Positions 1 through 17,098 of a stretch of DNA of 18,486 nt are shown here, piece after piece. Source of the stretch: a virus (taxonomy: Duplodnaviria > Heunggongvirae > Uroviricota > Caudoviricetes); IMG/VR virus record IMGVR_UViG_2681813135_000006; one strand, 5' to 3'. The notes under the pieces were generated by a model, which saw nothing but the letters and a program-made list of their open reading frames with translations, was not told where the DNA came from and searched no databases. The translations under genes and the position numbers were made by a program. Within the stretch, counting starts at the first letter, position 1; the number at the start of each line of letters is the position of its first letter.

Positions 1-129
1 CTAATGAAAAAAACGCGTATGCCTTTGCCAGACAAGCGTTATAGCTATCGCGGCAAGGTGATGCTGCCAACTTACTGATTTAGTGTATGATGGTGTTTTT
101 GAGGTGCTCCAGTGGCTTCNNNNNNNNNN

Positions 130-182
130 CCGCAGCCGGTTAGCAGCTGCAGCAGGCACAGGCCGACGAGCGCAATCATCAT
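130..182 (-). CDS. Rz1-like o-spanin lipoprotein, 5' end only (in the +1 frame inside Rz); remainder lost in or beyond the N gap
   Basis: Minus-strand ATGATG at 182-177, then MMIALVGLCLLQLLTGC: a lipoprotein signal peptide with a lipobox (LTGC, Cys codon at 134-132), embedded in the distal half of Rz as is typical for Rz1. Confidence 0.5.
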
Positions 183-459
183 CCGCAACAGCCACTTTGA
201 TATCTGCCTGGGCTCTCTGTGACTCCAGTGCGATCTTGTTCTTTGCATTCTGGTTCGCCTCTGAAATGGCGTTGATGATACTCACGGCCCGAATCACGTT
301 CGCGGTGACAGCATTCGCGGTCTCAGCCTGCTGTTCTGCGCTATCGGCCCGCTCCTTTTCGCTACTGGCTTTGTCGCTGTAATACCATGCCGACCAGCAC
401 GCCCCGCCGAACAGGCAAAGGAGGAATATGGCAATCGCAATGATGTGACGAGCTTTCAT
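130..459 (-). CDS. Rz-like i-spanin (inner-membrane spanin), 5' portion; C-terminus undefined because the ORF runs into the N gap at 120-129
   Basis: ATG at 459-457 overlaps the endolysin TGA stop (ATGA). N-terminal hydrophobic signal-anchor (MKARHIIAIAIFLLCLFGGA) followed by a charged Ala/Gln-rich helical region, as expected for Rz. Sits directly downstream of holin and endolysin. Confidence 0.7.
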
Positions 460-992
460 TTATCGAGCCCCCAGCATGCCAACGCGCTTTCTTGGTCGCG
501 GCGTTCCACCTGACCGAAGCATCCGTTCTTCTGCCCCTTGGTTAGCCGGCAATCCCGGCCGCCATCTTTTATCCACCAGCGGATCGCTTCGCATGCCCCT
601 TTACGGTCACCGGCATTGATGCGCTTATAGAACGTCGAGGGGAAGCACTTACCGGGCCCGATGTTATACGGGCAGAAAGAAGCTATTCCGGCCTTTTGCG
701 GTTCGGTCAGCGGCACCCTGATATTGCGTTCAACCCAGGCCAGCGCTTTATTTCGCTCAACGGCATTCACCTGGTCACATTTGGCCTGCGTCAGCTTCAT
801 GCCCTGGCGAACTGGTTTACCATCTACCAGCGTGGCGCCGCGGCAAATAGTCCAGACGCCGCCACCGTCCTGATAAGCAATCAGGCTGTTGCCTTCCTTC
901 TCATTCAGGAACTGATCGAGAATAACGGGCGCTGACGCACCGGCGAGGATAAGACCTAATACCGCAGCGCTAAGCTTTGATCTGTCAGCCAC
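456..992 (-). CDS. Phage endolysin, lysozyme-like (RrrQ-type) with an N-terminal SAR-like hydrophobic segment; start re-called to GTG at 992
   Basis: Protein reads like prophage lysozymes (EGNSLIAYQDGGGVWTICRGAT...CFPSTFYKRINAGDRKGACEAIRWWIKDGGRDC) by recall. N-terminus LSAAVLGLILAGASAPVIL resembles a signal-anchor-release domain. GTG at 992-990 overlaps the holin TAG stop; the ORF-track start at 1103 is GTG with no RBS and lies inside the holin gene. Confidence 0.85.
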   Translation of the reverse strand: MADRSKLSAAVLGLILAGASAPVILDQFLNEKEGNSLIAYQDGGGVWTICRGATLVDGKPVRQGMKLTQAKCDQVNAVERNKALAWVERNIRVPLTEPQKAGIASFCPYNIGPGKCFPSTFYKRINAGDRKGACEAIRWWIKDGGRDCRLTKGQKNGCFGQVERRDQESALACWGLDK

Positions 993-1207
993 TATTCCCC
1001 CCTGGCGGCTTTGCGCCGGTCCTCTTTGATTTTGAAATACAGGTTTGTCAGATACGTCAGCAGCCCGAACACCAGGCTGCCAAGCACACCAATGGCTGCC
1101 CACTGCGATGGTGACACCTGGTCAAGCAACTGCAGGCTCCAGTAACCAGCGTTAGTCGCTGATGCACCATAGGCGATGCCAGTGGTTAGTTTTTCCATGC
1201 GTAACAT
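992..1207 (-). CDS. Class II holin, phage 21 S21 pinholin-like, with dual-start motif (M1-L-R-M4)
   Basis: 71 aa; sequence [14 protein letters not shown]...[42 protein letters not shown] matches recalled S21 pinholin. Both M1 and M4 are ATG; strong SD GGAGGTG sits 6 nt upstream of the first ATG. Two predicted TM segments. Confidence 0.85.
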
Positions 1208-1307
1208 GCTCTCACCTCCGATTATTTCGGGGTGCTATGTGTAATGGGGATCAGGCTCTCGGGCTGCATTAACAACAAGGCTTGTTGAGGAGGTTTCCCG
1301 GAGCCTG

Positions 1308-1335
1308 AAAAAGAAAAGGCCCGCGTATGCGAGCC
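1308..1335 (-). terminator. Putative intrinsic terminator on the minus strand between Q and the lysis genes (candidate tR'-like site)
   Basis: Minus-strand RNA GGCUCGC-AUAC-GCGGGCC (7-bp stem, one G-U pair) followed by UUUUCUUUUU; about 100 nt upstream of the holin start. Confidence 0.5.
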
Positions 1336-1590
1336 TCTATAAATTCTTTGCCACTTCCCGGAGTGGCCACGCTCATGCCCTTGAGCTGCTGTCGCATCAT
1401 CGCCGCTTATCACCGGTGCGCGTCTGGCTTTCGCGCTGCTTTACCGGAGCTATTTTTAATCTATGAACCCTGACCCGTCACTACACAGGCTCGCTCAATG
1501 GCGACTCGGGGCAGCATCATGACTGCTGCATTGCCTTTCGGCTACGGTGTGTCCGTTCTACTCTACATTTTCATACCCTCCAGAAACGGC

Positions 1591-1620
1591 AAAGCCCCGC
1601 GGGGTTAACCGCAGGGCTTT
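1591..1620. other. Strong 12-bp hairpin (one G-U pair) of unknown function in the Q-to-holin intergenic region
   Basis: aaagccccgcggggttaaccgcagggcttt is nearly self-complementary around a ttaacc loop. No long U tract follows on either strand, so it is not a canonical terminator. Confidence 0.4.
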
Positions 1621-1715
1621 AAACGAAGGCAGTAACCCATCGTTGGAGAGAAATTAACACAGATTCGGGAAAAGTAAATAGCTCACGATAAAATCGACAG
1701 CGATTAATTGGTGCT

Positions 1716-2546
1716 TTATCGAGTTATTGCTCGCAGTTGCGATTCGGCCCACGCTTCTTCCATGTCGAATTTGGTGATCAGCCGGTCGTAAAACGGCTTC
1801 ACTGACTTTTTCCAGGTGTCCAGAGTAATGGCGTCGGTAATAAGGCAAACAGCCGCATATGCCTCAGTCGAGGGGATCCGCTCATACCCGCGCCCGCCGC
1901 AGCGCTTGCAGTCGGCCATCACCGGCGCGCCCTGCTTTTCTGTCAGCGTCTTGCTGACAGCTTTTCCGCGCCCCTGGCAGTCATTACATGCGCAGCTGAC
2001 GACCTTCTTCCCTTTGCAGGCCGAGCACAGCACCCGGGCCACCTCTTTCACCTCACGCCGATTCTGATGCTGCGAAGGGATAACCTTCAGCCCCCATTTT
2101 TTTGATTTTTGAATGATGTCTTTTGCGCAGCCAGAGATGCTGGTTTTCATACTAAAAACGTCAGCCTCAATGAACCCCTGCCCTGCGCAACATTCGCACC
2201 TCTTGACGCTGGCGGCGCTGCGGGAATAGTCCTCAAAAGCGAAGGTAGCAAGCTGGCGCATCACCAGCGGTTTAACCCCAGCGTCCAGTTTGCGCAGGGC
2301 AGCCACGCTATCGCATTTTGTCAGCGCATACTGGGCCAGCAGCTCGATCGCTCTCTCCCGATCGTTGTTGCTGATGCCCATCTTTCCGAGAAAGGCACTG
2401 TAGCCCATGGCGGCGCGTTCCTGGGTCATGCCCATGGCTGCCATGATGTCCGTTCCGGTCAGCGAGTCGGAGGCCGTAGCGCGCGGAGAGTCGCTAATCA
2501 GCGTCGATTTGGCGAAGTGGTATTTCACGGTGTTTTCGAGGTTCAT
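1716..2546 (-). CDS. Putative late-gene antiterminator Q (Q-like, with two CxxCxGxG zinc-finger-like motifs)
   Basis: 276-aa ORF; ATG at 2546 with SD AGGAG 7 nt upstream. Lies between rusA/ylcG-like and the lysis cassette, the canonical Q position. Motifs CNDCQGRGK and CKRCGGRGY. Family assignment is by position and recalled similarity to prophage antiterminators. Confidence 0.6.
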   Translation of the reverse strand: MNLENTVKYHFAKSTLISDSPRATASDSLTGTDIMAAMGMTQERAAMGYSAFLGKMGISNNDRERAIELLAQYALTKCDSVAALRKLDAGVKPLVMRQLATFAFEDYSRSAASVKRCECCAGQGFIEADVFSMKTSISGCAKDIIQKSKKWGLKVIPSQHQNRREVKEVARVLCSACKGKKVVSCACNDCQGRGKAVSKTLTEKQGAPVMADCKRCGGRGYERIPSTEAYAAVCLITDAITLDTWKKSVKPFYDRLITKFDMEEAWAESQLRAITR

Positions 2547-2683
2547 GCAGCAGCTCCTGCCAACTGGTTAATGCGAATAAAATTGCGAAGAATGCGGTAG
2601 TCCACCAGCACCGAACCCGGGCGGCGATAAATGCGGAGGCGTGTCCAGCGCATGCGGATTACCTCAATCAGTTCTGATGTCAT
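2543..2683 (-). CDS. Small 46-aa protein, YlcG-like by position (not in the ORF track)
   Basis: Minus-strand ATG at 2683-2681 overlaps the rusA TGA, and its TGA at 2545-2543 overlaps the Q ATG (ATGA coupling at both ends). SD GGGGGA upstream. Translation [46 protein letters not shown]. Same position as ylcG between rusA and the Q gene in DLP12. Confidence 0.55.
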
Positions 2684-3042
2684 AAGTCCCCCAGTTCGGT
2701 GATGGTCAGCTCCAGCCTGCCGCCCCTGACGACGGGCATCCGTATAACGCGGTAGTCGTCCACCAGCTGATCGTCCTGCCAGAATCCGGCCTTAGTAAGC
2801 GCGTCGAACGCGGCCTTCTGCAGGTTGTCCAGGTCACGGCGGCGGCGGGCAGGCATATGGCACTCGATGCGAATCTTCACCGGGCCGGAGATGCCGATAT
2901 CCAGCAGCTGGTCTTTGATGATTTGGGCCACGCGGTCGCGGTAAGCCTGCCCTTCCGTGCTGATGTGCGTACGCCCGCGATTGTGTCGGTAATAGCGGTT
3001 ATTACTCGGTGGCCACGGCAATGTGATTTTGTACTCGCTCAC
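2680..3042 (-). CDS. rusA: Holliday junction resolvase RusA; start re-called to GTG at 3042
   Basis: [35 protein letters not shown]...[61 protein letters not shown] is near-identical in pattern to E. coli RusA (recall). GTG start preceded by an AGGGGAAGG-like SD; the ORF-track N-terminal extension overlaps the upstream gene. Confidence 0.9.
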
Positions 3043-3329
3043 GCTTTCACCTTCCCCTCTTTCAGCCAGATAACCTGCGTGCGGGCCATGCCCTCCAGCG
3101 CGCACTCCTTTGCATAATCCGCGTCGACCAGGCGAGTGCGGCGGTCGATTTCGTCGTGACAGCTGCTGCATGCAATGGTGGCAATCAGATCAGGCGGCTT
3201 AATTCCGGTACCGCACAGCCCGGCCAGGCGAATATGCGCCAGCACGCTTGTGTCTGGGTTGCCGTTGCACACGCCGGGGATCCGAACCTGACATTCGCGA
3301 CCGCGCGCAGCTTTGCGTAAATCCGCCAT
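3039..3329 (-). CDS. ybcO: YbcO-like protein (DUF1364 family, putative Zn-binding nuclease), 96 aa
   Basis: From the internal ATG at 3329: [34 protein letters not shown]...[11 protein letters not shown]...WLKEGKVKA, matching DLP12 YbcO in sequence and in position upstream of rusA (recall). The ORF-track N-terminal extension was rejected. Confidence 0.8.
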
Positions 3330-3331
3330 GC

Positions 3332-3538
3332 TCACCCCCAGACCTTCTGACGGAGTGACCGCGGCGTACGTTCCTGCCGGTGCGCCTCCGGCAGCCGGGC
3401 GCTGACGGTCCAGGTGACGTAATCGGGATTCAGGCTTCGCTCTACCTTCACGCCGCGGCGCCGGTATTCCGCCATGAGCTCGTCGGCCTGCTGCGTGGTG
3501 CACTCGGTGTGCTGGAACCATGTTTCTTTCATCGGCAT
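3332..3538 (-). CDS. Small hypothetical nin-region protein (about 66-68 aa)
   Basis: ORF in the ninE-equivalent position; candidate starts are GTG 3541, ATG 3538 and ATG 3532, with the upstream gene's TGA overlapping. No recognisable family. Confidence 0.5.
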   Translation of the reverse strand: MPMKETWFQHTECTTQQADELMAEYRRRGVKVERSLNPDYVTWTVSARLPEAHRQERTPRSLRQKVWG

Positions 3539-4137
3539 CACCCCACGAAGCTCATGAGCTGCGCAGCGGCATTATCCGCGTCGCTACGGCTCTTGAATGC
3601 CCTGGACAGGATCCAACGCCACAGAACATCGAGTGCGGCCCTGTAGAGTTGCTGGAACTCGGTTTCGTCCATATTGGCGAAGGCGATGCTGCGGGGGTGT
3701 TTGCGGAGGGTGCCGTCAGGCAGCTGTATCGCGTCGTAGTGGCCGGATTCGATGGTTACCCAGGCGCGGTAGGCGTCGAATGACTTGCAGGCGCTGATGC
3801 TGCCCGTGCGCTTATCAGCGATGCGCTCGAGATATTGCTCAGCGGCATCCAGCAGCGCCCCTTCGTTCCCGCCGTAGGAGGCCAGAAATCTGGCATAGCC
3901 GGTCACCAGCTTGCGTTCGTTGGAAGAGATCGCCCCGCCGGTTGGCTCCCAGTATTCGAACCCGAGGTTTAAAAGCGCGAAGAAGCGGCGGTGGAAAGCC
4001 GGATTGCGGACCTGTTTGAAGTCGGCTACCAGCACGGCGCCGAGTTTGATTTTTGATTGCAGAATATCGCTGGTCTCCGGCGTCGCGGGGATCAGGATTC
4101 CTGATGACTGCTTGATGAGTTGTAGTTCGTGCGCCAT
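3538..4137 (-). CDS. Conserved prophage nin-region protein of about 199 aa (possibly DUF1367-like; tentative)
   Basis: ATG at 4137 with SD GGAGAG 6 nt upstream; long ORF in the same direction as the flanking phage genes. Family assignment is by recall only. Confidence 0.65.
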   Translation of the reverse strand: MAHELQLIKQSSGILIPATPETSDILQSKIKLGAVLVADFKQVRNPAFHRRFFALLNLGFEYWEPTGGAISSNERKLVTGYARFLASYGGNEGALLDAAEQYLERIADKRTGSISACKSFDAYRAWVTIESGHYDAIQLPDGTLRKHPRSIAFANMDETEFQQLYRAALDVLWRWILSRAFKSRSDADNAAAQLMSFVG

Positions 4138-4171
4138 GGTTTCTCTCCGTGGCGCAGTAGGTTACGGTTGT

Positions 4172-4420
4172 TCAGACCGTTGATTTCATATTATCAGAAG
4201 GTTGGGTTACCCGGTAGCCGAGACGGTTAATAAACTGCATAAAACCATTAGGAGTAAAGACCTCTTCATCATCCAGCAAAGGCCGCATAGAAACCATGCC
4301 ATTGACGCGATAAATTAGATGCCTGCCCGATGAAGGAAAGCTAAACACCACGCAGCCGTCAGACCTTCTTACAATGTCATACCAGTTGTCTTCTGACGTT
4401 TGCAAAGCTGAATCACTCAC
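4172..4420 (-). CDS. Hypothetical 82-aa protein downstream of the dinI-like gene
   Basis: GTG start at 4420 with AGGGAG upstream; no family recognised. Confidence 0.45.
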   Translation of the reverse strand: MSDSALQTSEDNWYDIVRRSDGCVVFSFPSSGRHLIYRVNGMVSMRPLLDDEEVFTPNGFMQFINRLGYRVTQPSDNMKSTV

Positions 4421-4537
4421 ATTTATGTTCTCCCTTCGAGCGACTAACAGACGCGATTAAAGATTGTCGGCAGCAGCATCAGAGGGTTACGCAAATTGCG
4501 GTATTCTGAAAAATGCGCGCCAGCCTTAAGCGCAATT

Positions 4538-4771
4538 CTAATAAAACCAGTCGTCAGCGCTTTCCCAGGTATCCTGGAGGATTGATTCAATTTTCTTTTT
4601 ATCGTCCTTGTCACCACCAAAAACACTTAACCCATCGGCCCCGGCACGGCGGATTGTGAGCCTGCAATTGTCATAGTGATCATTCAGGCGCTTAAGCAGT
4701 TCTTTCTCCAGTGCTGGTACTGCGCCTTTAGGAAGTTCTTTCATGCGATCAATGGTTAATTCAACTTTCAT
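4538..4771 (-). CDS. dinI: DinI-like DNA-damage-inducible protein; start re-called to ATG at 4771
   Basis: MKVELTIDR...LSVFGGDKDDKKKIESILQDTWESADDWFY parallels E. coli DinI (MRIEVTI...ISEILQETWESADDWF) by recall. A LexA box lies immediately upstream. Confidence 0.85.
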   Translation of the reverse strand: MKVELTIDRMKELPKGAVPALEKELLKRLNDHYDNCRLTIRRAGADGLSVFGGDKDDKKKIESILQDTWESADDWFY

Positions 4772-4789
4772 AATGGCCCCCATTGCATG

Positions 4790-4809
4790 TACTGTGTTTT
4801 TATACAGTA
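4790..4809. promoter_or_regulatory. LexA (SOS) box, TACTGTGTTTTTATACAGTA, upstream of the dinI-like gene
   Basis: CTGT-N8-ACAG palindrome matching the E. coli consensus TACTGT(AT)4ACAGTA at 16 of 20 positions; 19 nt upstream of the dinI-like ATG and overlapping a plausible -10 region. Confidence 0.75.
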
Positions 4810-4871
4810 TACCTATGCGCGGAAATGATCAACGTTTTAAGAGCACAAATTGTTAATTTTCTGTCAGTTGT

Positions 4872-4899
4872 AAAAAAAGAAAACCCGCCGTAGCGGGTT
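4872..4899 (-). terminator. Rho-independent terminator on the minus strand
   Basis: Minus-strand RNA AACCCGC-UACG-GCGGGUU (perfect 7-bp stem) followed by UUCUUUUUUUU. Confidence 0.7.
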
Positions 4900-5262
4900 G
4901 AATTAGCAGTGTTATATTAAGCGGCAATTTCTTTCTGCCGGCACAATCCCGAGAGATTCGCCCTCTGTATCGCATCATCAATGAGCACCTGTATGACCAT
5001 GAGGCAAAGCGTTATCCAACTTGCATTCATCTTTTTCAATCAGCAAAGGAGTGGTTAGTGCTGTGAGTGGGCTTTGTTCACTTCATGGTAGATAAATCAG
5101 CTATGGATAAGTGATAAGAGGTGAAATCAATCCGAATTAACAACCTGAAGCACATTAATCGGAACACAGATATTAAAATCCTAAAGTCTAGTAACAAATA
5201 GCCGATATGAGATATTGCTTATCAGTTTAAAAATCATCTATTGAAAAAATGGGGGGGAGGCG

Positions 5263-5826
5263 TTGAAGCGAGTAGAGCGCGATTTTATCTGTCTGTTTAA
5301 TTGTGTGTGGTATCAAGATTTCCCTGTGTTCAAAGGTGAATATATCAACCGTTCCAACTGGACCATTCATGTTGGCCTGGTCATGCGCGAGTGTGCAAAG
5401 TTAATGGGCGCAAGAACATTTTTTGAACAAGGCGGGCGTACCGATGCGGTCCTACAATATCCAGACAATCAAATTTTAACCTATGTTGAGTGGGAGTATA
5501 ATCAGGCAGACAGAGATAGCGTTAACGAGTTAGACAAACTGCTTGAAAAAAACGACAAGTGCTATTTCTCCACATTCATCTCATATTGTCAGCATGAAAA
5601 CATCAATATTGTTATTGAAAAAGCAAGTAGAATATGGAGTGAAGCAAGCAGGCCTTTGATTTTTTTTCTTATCACCTATGAGCCTCAAACGAAAAAACGC
5701 CGCCATTTTTTAGAACTCAGAACTTATTTTTTCTCAAACGGCAAAAGAAAACTAGTTCGCAAACAACCTGCGCTTCCATGGGATATTGAGCAACGAAAAT
5801 ACAATGTCGAAGAAGATGCAGGATAG
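5263..5826 (+). CDS. Hypothetical 187-aa protein encoded in an AT-rich island on the opposite strand to the flanking phage operon (candidate moron/accessory gene)
   Basis: TTG start at 5263 immediately after a very strong SD (GGGGGGGAGG at 5251-5260). Visibly AT-rich coding sequence. No TM segment or family recognised. Confidence 0.6.
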   Translation: MKRVERDFICLFNCVWYQDFPVFKGEYINRSNWTIHVGLVMRECAKLMGARTFFEQGGRTDAVLQYPDNQILTYVEWEYNQADRDSVNELDKLLEKNDKCYFSTFISYCQHENINIVIEKASRIWSEASRPLIFFLITYEPQTKKRRHFLELRTYFFSNGKRKLVRKQPALPWDIEQRKYNVEEDAG

Positions 5827-6049
5827 AAGAGACATAAGGTTTTCACGACAGTCTCGTTCCGAGCCCTAACTAAAATATTCTGTTCGGAGCAACCAAATAG
5901 CTCTGGCTTTGCTGTGACCATGTTCGCGGTACCAACGCCTCTCTAGGTCCGCTTCTCGCTCATGGTGGACCAAAATCAAATCTAAAATGACGTGGCTAAG
6001 CGGGAGTACATAGTGAATGACAGGATGCTCCGGGCAGCACCATACTAAT

Positions 6050-6247
6050 TCAGTTCCCGTCAGAGGTAGGCGTTGCTTCATGATGGGATGAGCGCTCCCT
6101 CCAGACAATCCATGCGACAGCCGCCTCCCATGATATATATCCATTACCGCCATTTTTCGCTCTGCGGAGATTAACTGCATCACCAAACCTTTCAATGATG
6201 AATTTTTCAAATTCTATGCGTTTTTCTTCGTCGATTGTTGAATCCAT
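6050..6247 (-). CDS. Hypothetical small acidic protein (65 aa); may be the 5' part of a frameshifted gene continuing in another frame to 5866
   Basis: ATG at 6247 preceded by GGGGAAGG. The ORF-track entry 5866..6210 overlaps it in a second frame. Confidence 0.35.
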   Translation of the reverse strand: MDSTIDEEKRIEFEKFIIERFGDAVNLRRAKNGGNGYISWEAAVAWIVWRERSSHHEATPTSDGN

Positions 6248-6464
6248 ACCTTCCCCAGAAGAGTCCTACGAATCGCTCTTATTGCATAAAAAATAGCATA
6301 TACAATAGAGAGTGAAAAACCGACGTAGCGGGTTAACTTTATGTTACTCATGAGTCTTGTCTCGCTGCGACTTAAAAGCGGAACATTCTCGCGCAAGTTG
6401 CGTTGCTAAAGCTACGGGGTTGAATGGCTCTCCATGCCCATTTAAGAAGGCATGCGGTGTGTAG

Positions 6465-6493
6465 TTGAACGTTATTTAAAACACAGATAGAAT
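6465..6493 (+). promoter_or_regulatory. Putative sigma70 promoter for the secreted-protein gene
   Basis: -35 TTGAAC (6465-6470), 17-bp spacer, -10 TAGAAT (6488-6493), about 30 nt upstream of the ATG at 6527. Confidence 0.35.
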
Positions 6494-6526
6494 CAAGAAA
6501 AATCCTAAATAAATGGAATATTGTTT

Positions 6527-6907
6527 ATGGCTAAGAAAATCGCATTACTGGGCTTTTCTGCTCTTTTTGTTGCAAGTGTTGCTTTTGCTGAAACGACAAG
6601 TAACTGGGTTGAGGTTACTACAGCTGATGATGGCATTTTTTCAGCAAAAAAAGGCACATTTAGAAATGTAAAAGGTGATTCATCTGCCTTGTTCATGTAT
6701 CAAACAAAAAATAAAAAAGTAGAGTACTACAAAGTTAGTATTAAAGATGCCGACTGTGATAGTGGATATGGGGAGATAAGATTCTTCTATATGGATGGGA
6801 AATTAGCTTTCAAAGGTGATTATGTTGCTGATGGGAACAGTGTTGGCGCAGGTATTGGTGATTTTATGTGTGGAGTCAGAATTGGACTTAACACACAAAA
6901 AAGTTAA
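6527..6907 (+). CDS. Secreted/periplasmic protein of unknown function (126 aa, Sec signal peptide, 2 Cys)
   Basis: From ATG 6527: MAKKIALLGFSALFVASVAFA followed by ETT, a typical signal peptide with an AXA cleavage motif. Mature part is Gly/Asp/Lys-rich with two Cys. AT-rich; the TTG at 6521 in the ORF track is probably not the start. Confidence 0.7.
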   Translation: MAKKIALLGFSALFVASVAFAETTSNWVEVTTADDGIFSAKKGTFRNVKGDSSALFMYQTKNKKVEYYKVSIKDADCDSGYGEIRFFYMDGKLAFKGDYVADGNSVGAGIGDFMCGVRIGLNTQKS

Positions 6908-7321
6908 ATGAGGGGCATTTGTTAAAAAACAATAGCCCCACATTAGATCAATATTGGCTCCGGCATTTCTGGATAAAAGCTTCTATGCTACGGCGCTCAT
7001 AGCGAACAATCTTAGCGCTGAACTTTACACGGGGCCAATGTAGACCGGTGTCGGTGTTCTGTATTCCATTTACATAATGTTTTTTGCGTAATTCCCAGCT
7101 TCTGGCATACCTCGCCCGGAGTGAGGAGATCATCAGGTTGCTCAGTCATGTTATGCCTCGCTGTTATCTGGGGTGATGATTAGCAGCTTCCAGATGGCTG
7201 AGACATACATAGCCTGATGTTTCGCATCGACTAGGGCATTATGCATGTCACCTTCAAACGGCATGTCCCGAGTTCTCCCTTTTCGCCGCTTTCGCGTCGC
7301 ATATTCTCCAAACGGTATTTA

Positions 7322-7879
7322 TCAATCATTACTGTTATCCTCGCAGTAGTAGTGCCGTCCCTCTGGGTCAGTAGATACATGTCCGCAGATATCGCATTCA
7401 ATTCCAGGAAGCACCGATTCTGACTGCGCTTTGATATGCAGTCGCGGTTCACCGTCTTTCGGCTCTGGCCACTGGCGGTTTTTGTTAACCGCCAGCTTTT
7501 CTACCATCGCCAGGGTAATCTGCTTATCACTGATACCGGCACGACGTTGCGCATCCCATAACAGGAATTGCATGTCAGCCCATTCGCTCATCTCGTCTGG
7601 TTCCGCAGCAGCCTCGATAGCTTCTTTGGAAAGGTGCTTCAGCGGACCAACTGGACCGACATCGCCGAATGTTTCATCTGACCATGCTGCATGTTCACAG
7701 CGTACCTGCTCACGGGCTATCGACTCCAGAACCCCATCAATCACCTTCACTGCATCAGCCATTGCGTAGCCGAGATTACCGCCGTCGCTTTGTGCTGCTG
7801 CTTTGCTGAGTATTTCGCGTATCTGGTGCAAGCGATCAAGTGATACAGGACCGTGCGCCGGGTGGTTGTTAGTTGTCAT
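7322..7879 (-). CDS. DUF550-like prophage protein (dATP/dGTP pyrophosphohydrolase-like; tentative)
   Basis: 185-aa ORF with ATG at 7879; about 4 nt after the stop of the upstream small gene. Family by recalled similarity to conserved lambdoid prophage proteins. Confidence 0.6.
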   Translation of the reverse strand: MTTNNHPAHGPVSLDRLHQIREILSKAAAQSDGGNLGYAMADAVKVIDGVLESIAREQVRCEHAAWSDETFGDVGPVGPLKHLSKEAIEAAAEPDEMSEWADMQFLLWDAQRRAGISDKQITLAMVEKLAVNKNRQWPEPKDGEPRLHIKAQSESVLPGIECDICGHVSTDPEGRHYYCEDNSND

Positions 7880-7882
7880 GGG

Positions 7883-8083
7883 TTAGTCCTCTACCTTGTT
7901 TCCGCAATGCGGGCAGTAATTGAACTTATGGGCGAATCCAGGATGCGGAACGGCAAAGCGTTTGGTTTTCTCGTTCCAGTCAGCAATTACGATTTCAAAA
8001 TTTACGACCGCATTAGCCCAGTCACTGGAAAGAACTGGCTGCGACCCAATCAGGCCGACTATACAGCGATTACATTTTTCCAC
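7883..8083 (-). CDS. Small zinc-ribbon protein (CxxC...CxxC), hypothetical
   Basis: GTG start at 8083; CNRC near the N-terminus and CPHC near the C-terminus; tightly packed in the operon. Confidence 0.5.
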   Translation of the reverse strand: MEKCNRCIVGLIGSQPVLSSDWANAVVNFEIVIADWNEKTKRFAVPHPGFAHKFNYCPHCGNKVED

Positions 8084-8087
8084 TGAC

Positions 8088-8282
8088 TCACACCCCCTTC
8101 ACGCCAATGCCAGCAGTAAATCGCGACGGTGACCAATCGCAATATGTGTTCGACTCCGTGTGTCCAAAAATTGCTTTACAACGATGGATATGGTGGCAAT
8201 TACCACATGTTATGCCAGCCGGTAATCGCATCTTGTCGGGATCGGCTGGGTCATAATTCAACGCCAGTTTTTCGGTTGTCAT
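8088..8282 (-). CDS. Small Cys/His-rich hypothetical protein (64 aa)
   Basis: ATG at 8282 overlaps the upstream TGA (ATGA); SD GGGGAGG 8 nt upstream; CGNCHHIHRC motif. Confidence 0.5.
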   Translation of the reverse strand: MTTEKLALNYDPADPDKMRLPAGITCGNCHHIHRCKAIFGHTESNTYCDWSPSRFTAGIGVKGV

Positions 8283-8617
8283 GCTGGCATCCTCCCCACG
8301 ATATCTATAACCCGACGCATAACCGCACTTCCCCGAAAATCTGCTGGTAACTCAATCAGAGGCTTACTCGAACCGTATGAGAATCGTTGGAGATCGAAAT
8401 CAATTACAGCCTTTGGGTCCCTGAACAAATCTAGACGACCGTAACGAATGAGTTCGCCGCGTTCGGCTGCTACGCGGAAATACTTCTCAGCAGTCTGACG
8501 ATGCAGCGACAACATCTGTGATGCCTCGCTAACGGTTAAGCGTCCACGGATTTTCACCTCTTCGATGATCACCCGGATAAGTGCCGCCTGCTCTTCTGGT
8601 GTATTTGGTCTTGGCAT
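8279..8617 (-). CDS. Hypothetical HTH-containing protein immediately downstream of the O-like gene
   Basis: ATG at 8617, 2 nt after the O-like TAA, with GGGGG SD; helix-turn-helix-like stretch LTVSEASQMLSLHRQTAEKYFRVAAERGELIRYGR. Confidence 0.6.
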   Translation of the reverse strand: MPRPNTPEEQAALIRVIIEEVKIRGRLTVSEASQMLSLHRQTAEKYFRVAAERGELIRYGRLDLFRDPKAVIDFDLQRFSYGSSKPLIELPADFRGSAVMRRVIDIVGRMPA

Positions 8618-8619
8618 GC

Positions 8620-9531
8620 TTACCCCCTGAATCCGGGTGGGATTGTTTTGTCTGGCTCAGAAATGCGGTTCACATCCCTGCCCGTTTTGCGAGCGTTGAG
8701 AGCGAACTTCGGTTTAAACAGTCCCTGGTACCCGTTGGCGATACTGGTGTTGATCACATCAACGGGGTCATGCCCAGCGTCCAGGCAAGCCTTGAGCAAC
8801 TTGAATGCTTTGGTGACCGTCATTTCGGTCTTGATGGCTTTGCCAGACTGTTGGCGGTAGGCCACCCACTCACTCCAGGACACAGAATCAAGCCACTCAG
8901 GAACGGGAATCGTCAGCGGGTCAAACTTACCCTTCCCCTTTGGGGGATTAGAGGGGGTTAGATCTGTATTTATATTTGTATTTGGAAGAATGTCTTTGGT
9001 GTTCCCTGTTTTCAGGGATACCTCTCCCTGTTTTTGGGGATGGTTATCCCCGTTTTCAGGGATGATTGAAGGGGTAAAATTGCTATCCCTGAATTCAGGG
9101 ATGGTAATAACCCATGTGACAACTTCAGCAGCAGGAAACACCGCTGGACACTTCATGCAATTTGGCTTGGTATACGCCCATTTATCCAGGCTGGTATTAA
9201 TCCCTATGTATCTGGTTTGCCCAATGCGGCGCAGGATGATGATGTTCCGATAGGCAAGGCTCAACACGGCTTCAGAGACGTGTTTCACCTTCAGCGTCGT
9301 TTTATCTGCAATGAGGCTATTGGCGATGCGGTCAGAACTCTTAGACCAGCCATAGGTCAGACGAACGATAGCATTCAGCACCCGGAACTCGCGCCCGGAT
9401 AGTTCGACGATACACAGGGCATCCTGAATCTGGTTGGCCAGGCGCAAATAGCCTTTCTCCAGTTCAGCCATGCTGCTCTCCTGTTTCCCCTGCTGTGTGG
9501 GGAATTTGAATATTTCAGCGGTATTTGACAT
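8620..9531 (-). CDS. Lambda O-like replication initiator; start re-called to ATG at 9531
   Basis: N-terminus MSNTAEIFKFPTQQ...EKGYLRLAN...REFRVLNAIVRLTYGWSKSSDRIANS parallels lambda O (MTNTAKILNF...DGYARLSN...RQFKVLLAILRKTYGWNKPMDRITDS) by recall. Iterons and an AT-rich tract lie inside the gene. SD GGAGAA 5 nt upstream of the ATG. Confidence 0.85.
   Translation of the reverse strand: MSNTAEIFKFPTQQGKQESSMAELEKGYLRLANQIQDALCIVELSGREFRVLNAIVRLTYGWSKSSDRIANSLIADKTTLKVKHVSEAVLSLAYRNIIILRRIGQTRYIGINTSLDKWAYTKPNCMKCPAVFPAAEVVTWVITIPEFRDSNFTPSIIPENGDNHPQKQGEVSLKTGNTKDILPNTNINTDLTPSNPPKGKGKFDPLTIPVPEWLDSVSWSEWVAYRQQSGKAIKTEMTVTKAFKLLKACLDAGHDPVDVINTSIANGYQGLFKPKFALNARKTGRDVNRISEPDKTIPPGFRG
9003..9105. 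repeat. Replication origin iterons: four roughly 18-19 bp palindromic repeats (TCCCTG...CAGGGAT type) inside the O-like gene, with an AT-rich tract at about 8961-8990
   Basis: tccctgttttcagggata (9003), tccctgtttttggggatgg (9025), tccccgttttcagggatga (9047), tccctgaattcagggatgg (9087). Spacing is 22, 22 and 40 bp. Resembles lambda ori iterons, with the AT-rich region downstream in the direction of O transcription. Confidence 0.7.
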
Positions 9532-9615
9532 ACTGTTCTCCGCAATTACGCACAGTTTTTGCACCTGAAAGCCGTTGGTGTTCGAGCACCGCGGCTTTCG
9601 CCATTTCTGAGCCCG

Positions 9616-10173
9616 TCATAGCGCACCACCCAGCATCGTTGTAACCATCGCCATAATGGGCGCCACAGAATCAGGTCCGTCCAGGTAGAGCTTGGCTACG
9701 ATGCTCTCGCTGATTTCCTTCATCCGTTCGTGTCTGGGGGCTTTGAGGACGACAGCCTGTATCGCCTCAGCGTCTTCTTTCACCGACCTGGCGACACGAA
9801 CCGCAAAGCAGTCGTGCTTAATCACGCGATCCCGGTACGCCAGCGGCAGAACCGAAATTATTACCGGCGCCAGCTGCTCGACGTTCGCCCGGTAGGCCGG
9901 TGATTTCTCGTGGTTGTCCAGCCAGCGAAACAGCTTCACGTTCCACACATCGGCGCTGCCGGTCATGTCAATGCTGTCAAGCTCGGCCTGTTCGGCAGCC
10001 TCTTTAATCGCCAGAGCGACCGCCACGCGGCCCTCTGCCGCCGCCCAGGCGCGGACGGCAGAACAGATAGCCCGGTGATCGACCGGCTGGCCTTCAGCCT
10101 CACTGTGTTGATACTGGAATTTCAGGTGCTCTGATGGCGCTCTGTTATTCTGTTGAAAAGAAAGTGTTTGCAT
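9616..10173 (-). CDS. YdaT-like/CII-position regulatory protein (185 aa)
   Basis: ATG at 10173 with AGGAG SD. Directly downstream of the Cro/YdaS-like gene. The motif LAPVIISVLPLAYRDRV resembles the recalled Rac YdaT; family is tentative. Confidence 0.55.
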   Translation of the reverse strand: MQTLSFQQNNRAPSEHLKFQYQHSEAEGQPVDHRAICSAVRAWAAAEGRVAVALAIKEAAEQAELDSIDMTGSADVWNVKLFRWLDNHEKSPAYRANVEQLAPVIISVLPLAYRDRVIKHDCFAVRVARSVKEDAEAIQAVVLKAPRHERMKEISESIVAKLYLDGPDSVAPIMAMVTTMLGGAL

Positions 10174-10184
10174 TGTCAGTGCTC

Positions 10185-10403
10185 CTACTTTGGTAATCCG
10201 TCAGTGGGATTTGGATAGAGATCAGGGCGCAGCTCGTGGGGGGTTACGCCTGTCATTTTGAAAATCGGGAAGATATAGCTTGGCGGGACGATCCCTTGGT
10301 CACGATTCTTCCAATGACTTACAGACATACTCGTCACACCAAGCGCGATGCTGAGCTTTCTGGCAGAGCCAGCGGCTTTAATTGCTTTATCGAGTGCGGA
10401 CAT
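10185..10403 (-). CDS. Cro/YdaS-like HTH regulator (72 aa), divergent from the repressor
   Basis: ATG at 10403 with AGGAG 6 nt upstream. HTH-like KAAGSARKLSIALGVTSMSVSHWKN. Position and size match cro/ydaS in an immunity region. Confidence 0.75.
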   Translation of the reverse strand: MSALDKAIKAAGSARKLSIALGVTSMSVSHWKNRDQGIVPPSYIFPIFKMTGVTPHELRPDLYPNPTDGLPK

Positions 10404-10505
10404 GTGCTTCTCCTGCTTATTGATAGCAGAAGTAAACCACAGATTTATACTTCATGCAAACTTTGGATTTATTGCGTGCATAAACCAAATATTTACAATG
10501 ACCAT
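10404..10505. promoter_or_regulatory. Divergent immunity-region promoter/operator segment between the Cro-like and repressor genes
   Basis: AT-rich 102-bp intergenic region. For the repressor: -35 TTGCGT (10472-10477), -10 TACAAT (10494-10499), with no SD before the ATG at 10506 (leaderless-like). Pseudo-palindromes such as TTATTGCGTGCATAA are candidate operators. Hexamer assignments are inference. Confidence 0.5.
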
Positions 10506-10895
10506 ATGAGAAAAGAAGAACCCAACCTCGTTCTGGTGGAGCGCCTTACTGAGATCACTGATCGCGGCGTTACCAAAGCAGACATGGCAAGAATAGCTGG
10601 AGTCACCCCTCAGGCCGTAAACGGCTGGTTCAAAAAAGGCGTGATTAGTAAGAAATCGGCACTGGCCATAGCCGACGCTGTTGGTATTTCTGTCGCCTGG
10701 CTACTCGGTGAAGACGTTGGGGAGAAAGACGGTCTCAAACCGGACGAACAGCGTTTGCTCGAGCTCTACCGCCAGTTACCGGAAGAAGAGCAGCAGAACA
10801 TGCTCCGCATTTTTGCGCTTCGCCTGAAAGAGTTAGATGAGCTGTACGAGAAGTACATGAAGGGTCGGATTCGATCGCAAGGTGAGCAAACCTAA
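10506..10895 (+). CDS. Prophage repressor, XRE-type HTH, 129 aa, without an S24 peptidase (autocleavage) domain; RacR/CI-like role
   Basis: ATG at 10506. HTH TKADMARIAGVTPQAVNGWFKKG; the C-terminal half is a charged helical region (LLELYRQLPEEEQQNMLRIFALRLKELDELYEKYMK). Divergent from the Cro-like gene. The ORF-track N-terminal extension (from 10236) crosses the promoter region and was rejected. Confidence 0.8.
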   Translation: MRKEEPNLVLVERLTEITDRGVTKADMARIAGVTPQAVNGWFKKGVISKKSALAIADAVGISVAWLLGEDVGEKDGLKPDEQRLLELYRQLPEEEQQNMLRIFALRLKELDELYEKYMKGRIRSQGEQT

Positions 10896-10959
10896 ACCAG
10901 TAGTATCTAATTCCATGTAATAAAAATATTTCAAGATTTAATATCTTCTGGAGGATTCG

Positions 10960-11241
10960 GTGTCTAAAGAAACAACCGTCGAACTTATGCATCTTAATGA
11001 TGTAATCGAAGCGAAAAATTTCATCGAGACCAATGCTGACGGTGTCGTAACAATCGGCACACAAAATGCCGGTTACGAAGTTTACAATTTTGTGTTCCTG
11101 AATAGCAGCCCGATCATCGGTACGGATAATGCGGATATAGTCGTCAAGGGCATGCAGCGAACCAAAGTTGTGTCTGTGACTTTAAGCAAACAAAAGGCTT
11201 ATGATTTTTATCAATCCTTAAAAAGTATGTTTGAGGAATAA
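10960..11241 (+). CDS. Hypothetical 93-aa soluble protein, first gene of an AT-rich pair downstream of the repressor
   Basis: GTG at 10960 with strong SD GGAGGA 4 nt upstream; no TM segment; no family recognised. Confidence 0.65.
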   Translation: MSKETTVELMHLNDVIEAKNFIETNADGVVTIGTQNAGYEVYNFVFLNSSPIIGTDNADIVVKGMQRTKVVSVTLSKQKAYDFYQSLKSMFEE

Positions 11242-11247
11242 TAATTG

Positions 11248-11769
11248 ATGGATGCGGCTCAATCATCTCTTGGTGAAGGGAAGTTATTGATTGCATATTC
11301 AGACCATAGCGGAGCTACAGTAGGCTTAGAGTTTTCATCAGTAGCTTCGAGCCAAGCAACCTTCCTTATGGGTGCTTGTAGTTTTGCCGCTTCGGATAAA
11401 CAAAAACGGATTGTCACATCAGTTGCTATGGATGATACTGAAATCATTCATACGTCAACTGAAGATGGAGGTGACGACATGGAAAAGAGATTGGCTATTC
11501 TTGAGGTTGAAGTTGCCCACATCAAGAAAGATGTTGCCGAGATAAAAAACACAGTTTCAAAAGTTGATACGACAGTGAATTCACTGGACAAAAATATGGC
11601 TGTAGTTTTGGAGAGGCTGTCTAGTATCAAAGAGTCTGTAGACAAAAAGCCCTCATCAGACACAGTGGACAAGAAAATCTCTGATGCTAAATTGGCGATT
11701 CTCTTAGGTGTCCCTGCGATTATCGCCATTGGTACAGGGCTGTACAAAGCTTTTATGCACTTCTTTTAG
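11248..11769 (+). CDS. Hypothetical 173-aa tail-anchored membrane protein with a central coiled-coil-like region
   Basis: ATG at 11248 (SD GAGGAA upstream), 6 nt after the previous stop. Heptad-like segment EKRLAILEVEVAHIKKDVAEIKNTVSKVDTTVNSLDKNMAVVLERLSSIKESV, then a single C-terminal hydrophobic helix LAILLGVPAIIAIGTGLY. AT-rich. A strong terminator follows. Confidence 0.7.
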   Translation: MDAAQSSLGEGKLLIAYSDHSGATVGLEFSSVASSQATFLMGACSFAASDKQKRIVTSVAMDDTEIIHTSTEDGGDDMEKRLAILEVEVAHIKKDVAEIKNTVSKVDTTVNSLDKNMAVVLERLSSIKESVDKKPSSDTVDKKISDAKLAILLGVPAIIAIGTGLYKAFMHFF

Positions 11770-11841
11770 TCAGATTTGGTCAATACGCCTGAGTTATAAG
11801 GCTCTCAGCTACTAACTCTGTCGCCTTCCCCGAACCTTCTC

Positions 11842-11869
11842 ATCCCGACCACGCGTCGGGATTTTTTTT
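11842..11869 (+). terminator. Rho-independent terminator ending the repressor-side operon
   Basis: ATCCCGAC-cacgc-GTCGGGAT (8-bp perfect stem) followed by T8. Confidence 0.8.
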
Positions 11870-11943
11870 GCCTGCGATTCTGCAGACGTGTCACAAAACC
11901 CAGCCACATAAACCTCAGATTTACAATTAACACTAACCTTAAG

Positions 11944-11972
11944 TTGACACATATATAAACCAGTGATTTAAT
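11944..11972 (+). promoter_or_regulatory. Putative sigma70 promoter (early-left-like) driving the kil/recE/recT side
   Basis: -35 TTGACA (11944-11949), 17-bp spacer, -10 TTTAAT (11967-11972). An ATTTACAAT motif just upstream (11919-11927) is also present in the immunity region (10491-10499). Confidence 0.45.
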
Positions 11973-12224
11973 CTAACTCACCAAGACGCACCACGAACCA
12001 CCCAGGCATGGAGCCCACGAAGTAGCCGTCCGGGGCATACGAAAACCGGAATGAGGTGGTGATATTAACGCGCAGTAGGTTTGAAACGTTCCGCCAGCCT
12101 GGCGACAAGGGCAAACACAGAAGTGAGCTTCGCGGTGGTGAATTGCAGAGTTAAAACGCTCAACTGTGAAGATCAGCGTCACGGCACCACCAGCGAAGTT
12201 CACTCAGCAATAGTGGAGAACATC

Positions 12225-12431
12225 ATGGTTCATCAGCACTACGGTACACAGACAGTAAACCGCGGCGCAGTTCAGCCGGGGATGCTTGTAAAACACAAAG
12301 ACTCAACCTGGACCGCATCTGCTAACGCACGCGGTCGCCTGTATCTTCACCGTGGCATCGAACGTACCTACACCAAAGATTTGCTGGTTGAGGTTTATCT
12401 AAACGGTTTAGGACATGGCCTTAGCCATTAA
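12225..12431 (+). CDS. Kil-like small protein (KilR-family, FtsZ-inhibitor type), 68 aa
   Basis: ATG at 12225 with SD GGAG 4 nt upstream. MVHQHYGTQ...ASANARGRLYLHRG resembles the recalled Rac KilR pattern. The ORF-track entry with a TTG start at 12081 is probably an over-extension. Confidence 0.55.
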   Translation: MVHQHYGTQTVNRGAVQPGMLVKHKDSTWTASANARGRLYLHRGIERTYTKDLLVEVYLNGLGHGLSH

Positions 12432-12442
12432 CGGAGTGAGTT

Positions 12443-12604
12443 ATGCAGGAGAAAAAATGCGCGTACTGCCGCAAGCCGATCAAGCAAGGGAAGGAAGTTA
12501 AAAACGAACTGCTCTTTATCCACGGCACGCAGTTGAAACGCGAGCAACGTGATTACTGTTCAGTACGTTGCGCTTCGTTCGACCAGATGGCCCACGAAGC
12601 ATAA
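12443..12604 (+). CDS. YdaE-like small zinc-ribbon protein, 53 aa (not in the ORF track)
   Basis: ATG at 12443 with SD GGAG 6 nt upstream. MQEKKCAYCRKPIKQGKEVKNELLFIHGTQLKREQRDYCSVRCASFDQMAHEA has paired Cys residues (CxxC...CxxxC). Same position as ydaE between kilR and recE in Rac. Confidence 0.55.
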   Translation: MQEKKCAYCRKPIKQGKEVKNELLFIHGTQLKREQRDYCSVRCASFDQMAHEA

Positions 12605-12742
12605 CGAAAACCCCGCGCAAGGCGAGATTCACGTCCGGTGCCACCGACCAAAGTTACACCGGAATTTATACCAAACCAAAAAACATCCAATGGGCGCTAT
12701 CTCTGGCCCGGGGATTCTAACACTCAAAAAAGAGGATCTCAC

Positions 12743-15652: not shown

Positions 15653-15657
15653 GGGGA

Positions 15658-16776
15658 ATGATGATGGAAAACACGAATATCGTAACCGCTGAACAGCAGA
15701 CTCCAAACACGATCTCAGCCAGCAATGCCATTTTCAACGTGCAGGCTTTAACCCAGCTTCAGTCTGTCGCCGGGTTGATGGCACAGGCAGCCGTAACGGT
15801 GCCTGAGCACCTCCGCGGCAATCCGGCAGACTGCATGGCCATCATCATGCAGGCGATGCAGTGGGGTATGAACCCTTACGCCGTGGCGCAAAAGACGCAC
15901 CTGGTTAACGGTGTCCTGGGATACGAAGCGCAACTGGTTAATGCGGTGATCTCCAGCTCAAACGCCATCGTTGGCCGCTTTCACTATGAGTACGAGGGCG
16001 ACTGGTCGAAATGTGCCAGCAGCCGCGAGATAACCGTTAAAAAGCCTGCGAAAGGTGGCGGGACGTACGACAAGAAAGAAATGGTACGCGGTTGGGAAAG
16101 TGCTGATGAACAAGGACTGTCGGTACGGGTAGGTGCCGTTATTCGCGGTGAAAGTGATATCACCTGGGGAGAGCCTGTTTTCCTCTCCAGCGTAATCACA
16201 CGTAATTCTCCACTTTGGGTATCAAACCCGAAACAGCAGATCGCTTATCTGGCACTCAAATACTGGGCGCGCCTGTATTGCCCTGCAGTTGTTCTTGGTG
16301 TGTACACCCCTGATGAGATTGAACAGCGCACAGAAAAAGAGATCAACCCAACGCCGCAACGCGTTAGCCTGGCTGATATCTCAGGTGACACCGTCACAAC
16401 CACGCAAAGCGCACAGGAATCGTCGGTAAATGTCGACTCTCTTGCCGATGATTTCCGCGAACGCATCGAATCTGCTCAGGACGTGGATAGCGCCAAATCG
16501 CTGCGTGCCGACATTGAAACGGCGAAAGCTACGCTGGGATCCGCACTATTCACCGAGCTGAAAAACAAAGCCGTAAAGCGTTATTACCTAGTGGATGCAC
16601 GCAACAAGGTTGAGGAGGCTATTAAATCCCTGCCCCAGCCCGACGAGCCGCATGCATCCGAACGGTTCGCTGAAGCCGAGCGCATGCTTGCATCTTCAAA
16701 GCGTCACTTAGGCGATGAACTGCACGATCAATTCAGCATCACCCTGGCGGATATGAAACCGGAATACGTGGCCTGA
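15658..16776 (+). CDS. ssDNA annealing protein of the Redbeta/RecT family, with a long C-terminal extension (372 aa if from the first ATG)
   Basis: Begins 6 nt after the recE-like stop. ADCMAIIMQAMQWGMNPYAVAQKTHLV and SPLWVSNPKQQIAYLALKYWARLYCPAVVLGVY parallel lambda Beta motifs (QYGLNPWTKEIYAF; PKRMLRHKAMIQCARLAFGFAGIY) by recall. Three consecutive ATGs at 15658-15666; the exact start is uncertain. Confidence 0.75.
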   Translation: MMMENTNIVTAEQQTPNTISASNAIFNVQALTQLQSVAGLMAQAAVTVPEHLRGNPADCMAIIMQAMQWGMNPYAVAQKTHLVNGVLGYEAQLVNAVISSSNAIVGRFHYEYEGDWSKCASSREITVKKPAKGGGTYDKKEMVRGWESADEQGLSVRVGAVIRGESDITWGEPVFLSSVITRNSPLWVSNPKQQIAYLALKYWARLYCPAVVLGVYTPDEIEQRTEKEINPTPQRVSLADISGDTVTTTQSAQESSVNVDSLADDFRERIESAQDVDSAKSLRADIETAKATLGSALFTELKNKAVKRYYLVDARNKVEEAIKSLPQPDEPHASERFAEAERMLASSKRHLGDELHDQFSITLADMKPEYVA

Positions 16777-16814
16777 CGAGACCGGGAGGGGTAACCCTCC
16801 CTCAAGGAGATTAT

Positions 16815-17057
16815 ATGCGACTGATCAATCGAGGAAGTAAGCAATCACCTTTAGCTCGCCAAGCATGCGACATCGCGCTGGCAGCTCACTTGCAAACATA
16901 TGGCGACTATGGGCGAAGCAAGATGAAAGAGACTTATACGGTGAAGGTTGAAGGCGTGAAAGTCTGGGTGGAGGTGGTGAACCGAAAGGCGAGCTACGTG
17001 GCCACAGCGATGACCGGCATGCGCCGTCTCCGCTCCCTGCCCGGGCAGGTTGGTTGA
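16815..17057 (+). CDS. Hypothetical 80-aa protein
   Basis: ATG at 16815 with strong SD AAGGAGA 4 nt upstream, preceded by a GGGAGGG-gtaa-CCCTCCC stem-loop (16784-16801). Confidence 0.5.
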   Translation: MRLINRGSKQSPLARQACDIALAAHLQTYGDYGRSKMKETYTVKVEGVKVWVEVVNRKASYVATAMTGMRRLRSLPGQVG

Positions 17058-17098
17058 AAAAGATTTTGAATGGCCCGAACGGGCAACTGGAGAGAGCT

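Follow-up and report, generated by a model that had tools for sequence, protein, structure and literature searches.

The analysed window (18,486 nucleotides of the caudoviricete record IMGVR_UViG_2681813135_000006 in IMG/VR) carries four lysis genes that are read from the minus strand in the order holin, endolysin and i-spanin (Rz), with the frame of the o-spanin (Rz1) lying inside Rz (Table 1). The genes are joined by overlapping signals, as the first-pass annotation of this DNA had described: the holin stop codon TAG (994-992) and the endolysin start codon GTG (992-990) share a G in the string TAGTG, and the endolysin stop codon TGA (458-456) lies on the Rz start codon ATG (459-457) in the string ATGA. 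The same GTG is also called as the endolysin start by PGAP in identical genomes. The features of the cassette are not due to chance, since the holin matches Pfam PF04971 at 6.6e-34, the endolysin matches Pfam PF00959 at 1.5e-24, and Rz matches the Rz-like spanin family PHROG 214 at 1.5e-36.

Table 1. Features of the lysis cassette and its surroundings, with positions counted in the window
Feature	Position	Strand	Details and evidence
Run of 10 N, scaffold join	120..129		Sole N run in the window
i-spanin gene (Rz-like), 5' part	130..459	-	110 of 130 codons; PHROG 214, SfIV identity
o-spanin gene (Rz1-like), 5' part	130..248	-	+1 frame inside Rz; open frame, lipobox
Endolysin gene	456..992	-	178 aa, GTG start; Pfam PF00959, PHROG, structures, 933W R
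Holin gene (S-like)	992..1207	-	71 aa; Pfam PF04971, PHROG, EssD/933W S identity, hydropathy
Hairpin pairing the holin Shine-Dalgarno	1213..1234	-	CACCCCG...CGGAGGUG; MFE and centroid folds
Terminator-like hairpin followed by T-run, Q-to-S spacer	1315..1338	-	10-bp stem with 6 GC pairs, tail TCTTTTTCAG

A gene for the antiterminator Q (PF03589, 1e-43) is found upstream of these genes at 2546..1716, separated from the holin gene S by a spacer of 508 nt. The RusA gene is also located upstream, and in complete copies of the prophage the terminase lies downstream. The position of the cassette after Q and ahead of the terminase therefore identifies it as the lysis unit of the late operon in a lambdoid prophage. 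This prophage is Rac-like, and its early region contains RecE/RecT and YdaE/YdaT. The hairpin in the Q-to-S spacer is a candidate tR'-type terminator that would be read through under Q antitermination. Scanning of the spacer with the sigma-70 consensus found no promoter, and the Rfam and tRNA scans of the whole window returned nothing.

The product of the S gene is predicted to belong to the class II holins of the S type known from phage 21. Its score against the Pfam model 'Bacteriophage P21 holin S' is 116.1 bits (cut-off 26), it matches the PHROG holin family at 3e-37, and its identity is 85% to EssD of DLP12, a cryptic prophage of E. coli K-12, and 82% to S of the Stx2 phage 933W. The first transmembrane domain (TMD1, approximately residues 7-27) is weakly hydrophobic and rich in Gly, Ala, Ser and Thr, and the second (TMD2, approximately residues 36-58) is strongly hydrophobic and followed by a basic C-terminal tail. 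In the Kyte-Doolittle hydropathy analysis (17-residue window, threshold 1.2), residues 31-60 are the only ones above the threshold, and the profile is the same in EssD and 933W S. The protein begins with M-L-R-M-E-K and its gene is preceded by a GGAGGT Shine-Dalgarno sequence 7 nt upstream. The dual-start M-L-R-M motif reported by the first-pass annotation is present, and both Met1 and Met4 are kept in EssD (MKSM) and in 933W S (MYQM). The dual-start and antiholin logic of S21 and the pinholin mechanism have been described (PMC9636201).

Comparison with phage 21 S21 and with DLP12 EssD, which is closely related to it, reveals the same arrangement of Met1 and Met4 as possible dual starts and the same combination of a weak TMD1 with a strong TMD2, and EssD shares with the window holin the length of 71 residues and the tail motif KIKED(R/K)RKAARGE. 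In contrast, the extra positive charge of the long form is contributed by Arg3 in the window holin (MLRM) and by Lys2 in EssD (MKSM), and the two proteins differ by 11 substitutions that fall mostly in TMD1 and the loop. The hairpin in which the Shine-Dalgarno sequence of the holin gene is paired was present in both the minimum free energy and the centroid fold and gives a weak hint that the translation of both holin starts might be controlled at this point, the fold z-score of the 101-nt region around the holin 5' end being -1.6, a value that is not distinguishable from shuffled sequences.

The endolysin, which matches the PHROG endolysin family at 1e-59, has the catalytic triad of the E-x8-D-x5-T form (E33, D42 and T48). 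Its N-terminus contains the basic residues R4 and K6 followed by an uncharged segment L7-L25 (LSAAVLGLILAGASAPVIL), in which Gly, Ala and Ser account for 10 of the 19 residues (53%) and Cys is absent; eight Cys residues are located in the periplasmic domain. Signal-anchor-release (SAR) domains are described as two or three basic residues followed by an uncharged transmembrane domain of about 20 mainly weakly hydrophobic residues (PMC9239132), and the endolysin N-terminus has this composition. Relevant in this respect is R of phage 933W, used as a SAR endolysin by the Young laboratory (PMC9239132), to which the window enzyme is 80% identical from residue 4 onwards, the N-terminus included. Common to the two proteins are the triad, all eight Cys residues and, at the N-terminus, the SAR-like stretch LSAAVL.LI.AGASAP.ILDQFL. 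At the level of sequence the T4-lysozyme fold, the SAR-like N-terminal domain and the similarity to 933W R agree with the earlier proposal that this enzyme is a SAR endolysin, which we regard as its probable nature.

An alternative is an endolysin with a cleavable signal peptide or a plain membrane anchor in place of a SAR domain, accompanied by a canonical large-hole holin, and two properties of the protein are in line with it: i) residues 19-21 read A-S-A, similar to the motif of a signal-peptidase site, and ii) the best 17-residue hydropathy window reaches 2.26, as high as in many stable transmembrane domains. However, the R21-type enzyme RrrD, the SAR paradigm, peaks likewise at 2.29, and the residue that would stand at +1 of the possible cleavage site is Pro22, a proline at this position being generally unfavourable for cleavage by signal peptidase I. 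The AGASAP segment that contains the motif is also found in 933W R, an experimentally used SAR endolysin. Moreover, the partner holin falls in the pinholin family, the members of which are unable to release cytoplasmic endolysins (PMC9636201). A cleaved or permanently anchored enzyme working with a large-hole holin is thus very unlikely.

The SAR reading of the N-terminus is in agreement with the comparison to the known structures of R21/RrrD. Two of these (PDB 3hde and 4zpu) are matched by the endolysin at ~1e-18, and because the alignment begins at residue 5 it includes the N-terminal domain. As in R21/RrrD (PDB 3hde, 3hdf and 4zpu), the enzyme belongs to PF00959 and combines the E-x8-D-x5-T triad with a weakly hydrophobic N-terminal domain free of Cys, but it is 13 residues longer, has eight Cys residues against four, and carries a C-terminal insertion (RLTKGQKNGCFGQ). 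Its identity to RrrD is 37%; given this value and the larger number of Cys residues, details of activation may differ from those of R21, for which the mechanism is known structurally. Activation proceeds by disulfide isomerisation in P1 Lyz and by steric refolding in R21. A third mode of keeping the enzyme inactive and then activating it, separate from both and involving for example the disulfide pattern of the periplasmic domain, is conceivable for the window enzyme and yet unlikely. The features on which this suggestion is based are the eight conserved periplasmic Cys residues, the SAR domain devoid of Cys and the limited identity to R21.

The two remaining genes encode a predicted two-component spanin. 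Apart from its PHROG match, Rz is similar to Pfam DUF2570 at 4.7e-4, which is under the cut-off of this family, and it has an N-terminal transmembrane domain at residues 6-22 (Kyte-Doolittle 2.57) preceded by K2 and R4. For Rz1, a start and the lipobox LLTGC that had been noted in the +1 frame inside Rz were confirmed (459-182 = 277 = 3x92+1). Translation of this frame from position 182 (ATG ATG ...) gives M-M-I-A-L-V-G-L-C-L-L-Q-L-L-T-G-C-G, where the lipobox Cys is encoded at 134-132 and GLCLLQLLTGC fits a PROSITE-style lipobox pattern. The codon at +2 is GGn and encodes Gly; with a lipobox followed by a residue other than Asp, Rz1 is predicted to be sorted to the outer membrane.

The exact start of Rz1 is ambiguous between ATG 248, TTG 188, ATG 182 and ATG 179. 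The codon at 248, which is kept in SfIV, has AGAGG 9 nt upstream and would give a signal of 39 residues with six basic ones; a signal that begins at ATG 182 has no basic residue, and one that begins at TTG 188 has a single Arg. None of the four lysis proteins passed the cut-off of an NCBIfam model. The assignment of the spanins to P2 LysB/LysC was also considered, as PGAP uses the label 'LysC', and was abandoned since the NCBIfam LysB model reached 20.6 bits, well short of its cut-off of 92.75.

The window contains 110 of the 130 codons of Rz and 17 of the 87 codons of Rz1, so that the relative position of the two stop codons is not readable from it. To establish the architecture, we followed the downstream DNA in three complete genomes (strains Res13, 613 and ES7). 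In each of them Rz has 130 codons and ends 20 codons past the break in the window, and Rz1 has 87 codons when counted from the Met-Met start (109 aa from ATG 248) and ends 148 nt past the Rz stop; in the coordinates of an identical genome (L002), Rz ends at 3654 and Rz1 at 3802. In strains 613 and ES7 both frames continue without interruption past the point that matches base 130 (GAATACGCGGACAGTTTACG...). The Rz1 gene was previously described as embedded, which does not hold for the complete identical copies: because its end lies beyond the Rz stop, the architecture is of the overlapped type. This predicted architecture was read in the three complete copies and in SfIV, the sequence available for the strain of the window itself ending at base 130. 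The same Rz/Rz1 DNA has been annotated in three different ways by automated pipelines.

Similarity searches with the full-length proteins lead to the same type of spanin. Rz and the i-spanin of SfIV show 57% identity over 129 aa, and Rz1 is 73% identical to both the SfIV o-spanin and SfV Rz1. In comparison with the lambda/21-type proteins, Rz aligned to RzpD over 34 residues with E=0.03 and Rz1 gave no alignment to RzoD. In the classification of Kongari et al. 2018 (PMC6139136), SfIV and SfV are assigned to the overlapped type, with the SfIV/SfV-type o-spanin placed in the 'Mu' family, phages 21 and 933W belong to embedded Lambda families, and the N15 spanins form an embedded singleton family.

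These results bear directly on the view that the locus is a true phage-21-type cassette composed of an S21 pinholin, an R21 endolysin and a lambda/21-type Rz with embedded Rz1. Its holin part is well founded, the window protein being a clear member of the S21 family, and the R21 fold, the triad and the N-terminal hydrophobic domain of the endolysin point in the same direction, as does the position of the Rz1 start in the +1 frame inside Rz. However, the endolysin is far closer to 933W R than to RrrD, Rz1 ends well past the Rz stop in complete identical copies, and the spanins match the SfIV/SfV overlapped type and have no significant similarity to RzpD/RzoD. The spanin part of this view is, judging from the complete copies, already refuted, and a true phage-21 cassette as a whole is extremely improbable. 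The name 'phage-21-type lysis system' used in the first-pass annotation can therefore be kept for the holin, applies to the endolysin in its fold, triad and N-terminal domain but not in its overall identity to R21-type RrrD, and is inappropriate for the spanins. The functional reading given there (pinholin, SAR endolysin and two-component spanin) still stands as a prediction from family matches and motifs.

The break in the two spanin genes coincides with the N run, which had been taken for a small unsequenced hole in Rz. The DNA on its other side does not agree with this explanation. Bases 58-119 represent a terminal repeat of IS1 that reads into the gap and has matches in thousands of plasmids as well as in almost every E. 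coli genome, and bases 1-57 correspond to the 3' end of a ybhM-like gene of the Bax-inhibitor-1 type, which adjoins ybhN and clsB. On the right side, the contig is 100% prophage sequence to base 130 and includes no IS1 bases. With an IS1/ybhM flank on the left and no IS1 bases at 130, we conclude that the 10 N join two unrelated contigs. An origin of the left flank from p15A or another cloning vector was also considered and was dropped after searches of plasmids and genomes, which identified the IS1 terminal repeat.

The same junction might be explained by damage to the prophage, in which Rz and Rz1 would have lost their 3' ends through insertion of IS1 or a deletion mediated by it, so that lysis can no longer be completed. 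Cryptic prophages are often disrupted by IS elements, as illustrated by IS5 in nmpC of DLP12, and an IS1 terminal repeat does face the gap from the other side. However, at an IS1 junction both contigs should carry IS1 bases, whereas here the contig end at 130 is pure Rz and all 62 IS1 bases belong to the other contig, and the outer flank of IS1 is the ybhM region and not prophage DNA. A run of fixed length of 10 N would moreover be typical of contigs that were strung together. In SfV-like phages the 3' region of Rz/Rz1 recurs at 86-90%, and a second prophage copy is thus a simpler reason for the contig break at this point. Loss of the spanin ends through IS1 is accordingly improbable, and in the window the spanin genes are cut by the assembly join.

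Positions 130-1720 of the window are found at 99.9-100% identity in 17 complete E. coli genomes, and in strain ES7 the whole of 130-18486 is present at 100%. A megablast search of the phage collection with the cassette as query matched just 130-265, the region of the Rz/Rz1 overlap, at 86-90%; no isolated phage in this collection has the whole cassette at the DNA level. All components are already known, and identical prophages are annotated in complete E. coli genomes.

At the protein level, each part of the cassette has close relatives that are found in different surroundings. In 933W, 4 nt lie between S and R in contrast to the overlap observed here, an ant gene is inserted between R and Rz, and the spanins are of the lambda type and embedded. 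The endolysin is also ~88% identical to gp54 of N15 (88-90% across N15 gp54 and coliphages Eeyore and Flotzy), and in N15 the stop of gp53 and the start of gp54 likewise overlap by 1 nt, but the partner holins of N15, Eeyore and Flotzy are unrelated in size (84-101 aa). The Shigella phages SfIV and SfV share with the complete copies of the cassette the 130-aa i-spanin, the o-spanin, the overlapped layout and the lipobox context LLTGC, although the SfIV spanins come after a holin of 108 aa and a lysin of 158 aa, both of different kinds. By these similarities the cassette is a mosaic that consists of a phage-21/933W-type holin, a 933W/N15-type predicted SAR endolysin and SfIV/SfV-type spanins, with the overlapped architecture read in the complete copies.

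Taken together, we are highly confident that the locus comprises the late-operon lysis genes of a Rac-like lambdoid prophage of E. coli, in which a predicted pinholin and SAR endolysin are combined with overlapped spanins in a mosaic arrangement. The computed basis of this interpretation includes the gene structure, the family membership, the motifs and the layout of the spanin genes in genomes with identical DNA.

By analogy with characterised homologues, the cassette would act as follows. Two products would be made from the S gene, starting at Met1 and Met4, and the longer one, with the additional positive charge of Arg3, may have weak antiholin activity. The shorter one would build up in the inner membrane until the weakly hydrophobic TMD1 exits the bilayer and TMD2 oligomerises, forming small pinholes that would collapse the proton motive force. 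Pinholes of this class would be heptamers of about 2 nm through which cytoplasmic endolysin is not released. The endolysin would meanwhile be exported by Sec, and its SAR domain at the N-terminus would tether it to the periplasmic side of the membrane in an inactive state; upon depolarisation it would be released, refold and cleave the murein by means of E33, D42 and T48. Finally, the i-spanin in the inner membrane and the o-spanin, an outer-membrane lipoprotein, would fuse the two membranes and thereby disrupt the outer membrane. The antiholin function and the membrane fusion are modelled here on the homologous systems, and the SAR behaviour and the pinhole size more specifically on homologues at 80-85% identity.

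The biological weight of the finding is small, since every component comes from a well-studied family and identical DNA has already been annotated, and nothing in the cassette is surprising to a specialist. The practical lessons include the following: i) embedded and overlapped spanins are indistinguishable on the basis of a truncated contig, ii) N runs in scaffolds may join unrelated DNA, and iii) overlapped spanin genes are annotated inconsistently by automated pipelines, for which the present locus provides one more case. Such reshuffling of modules is commonplace among lambdoid phages, and because modules reassort, a lysis cassette is not typable by its holin alone. In its most far-reaching and unlikely reading, the natural combination of an S21-type pinholin with overlapped spanins of the SfV type would show that these modules can be exchanged freely.

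Comparison of three loci from complete E. coli genomes, L002 (3262-3802), L006 (2762-3302) and L001 (4473-4802), which carry DNA identical to window positions 130-459 together with its continuation, allows us to identify three differing RefSeq/PGAP annotations for one and the same Rz/Rz1 DNA. In one genome Rz, the i-spanin, is called as a 130-aa DUF2570 protein and Rz1, the o-spanin, as an 87-aa 'peptidase'; in another Rz1 is a 109-aa 'LysC' and Rz a truncated pseudogene; the third has no Rz call. Rz1 has four candidate start codons in frame. The upstream ATG at 248 is preceded by a Shine-Dalgarno-like AGAGG, the conserved counterpart of which is GGAGG in the Shigella phage SfIV, and translation from this codon would give a lipoprotein signal of 39 aa that is unusually long and very basic. 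Translation from the proximal ATG at 182 would give a signal without any basic residue.

Coordinates of features in the window
Feature	Position	Strand	Details
ybhM-like Bax-inhibitor-1 gene	1-57		3' end; ybhN/clsB neighbourhood
IS1 terminal inverted repeat	58-119		oriented into the N10 run
Rz1 start candidates	179-248	minus	four, in frame
Hairpin CACCCCG/CGGAGGUG	1213-1234	minus	putative; would pair up the holin Shine-Dalgarno sequence
Q-to-holin gene spacer	1208-1715		508 nt
Terminator-like hairpin	1338..1315	minus	within the Q-holin spacer
Q antiterminator	1716-2546	minus	276 aa; two PF03589 stretches
YlcG, RusA, DUF1364, DinI, replication protein, YdaT, cI/cro-like pair, YdaE, RecE, RecT	within 2547-18486
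Integrase gene	extreme end of window

Unrelated contigs are joined at the run of ten Ns (120-129) to the left of the truncated spanin genes. Other strains have IS1 within the same ybhM-like gene, ~480 bp off. Positions 2547-18486, the remainder of the window, make up the early part of a lambdoid prophage of Rac-like type, and in E. coli ES7, which has an identical prophage, the integrase adjoins kch. The Q antiterminator matches the DnaJ-type CXXCXGXG zinc finger below threshold, scoring 24 bits where the cut-off is 32.7. Scans of the Q-to-holin spacer returned no sigma-70 consensus match and no tRNA or Rfam match. A second GC-rich hairpin, read by eye at ~1590-1620 in the same spacer, is without a T-run.

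Immediately upstream of the holin gene, the putative hairpin that would sequester the Shine-Dalgarno sequence recalls the way in which translation of dual-start holins is controlled, but the predicted fold of this region is not significantly better than those of its shuffles (z = -1.6).

The endolysin, encoded on the minus strand at 456-992, contains eight cysteines, none of which is located in the SAR domain. All eight are shared with the R endolysin of phage 933W, whereas the R21-type endolysin RrrD has four. The mode by which the tethered enzyme is kept inactive may be different from the two structurally known cases of SAR endolysin inactivation, P1 Lyz and R21.
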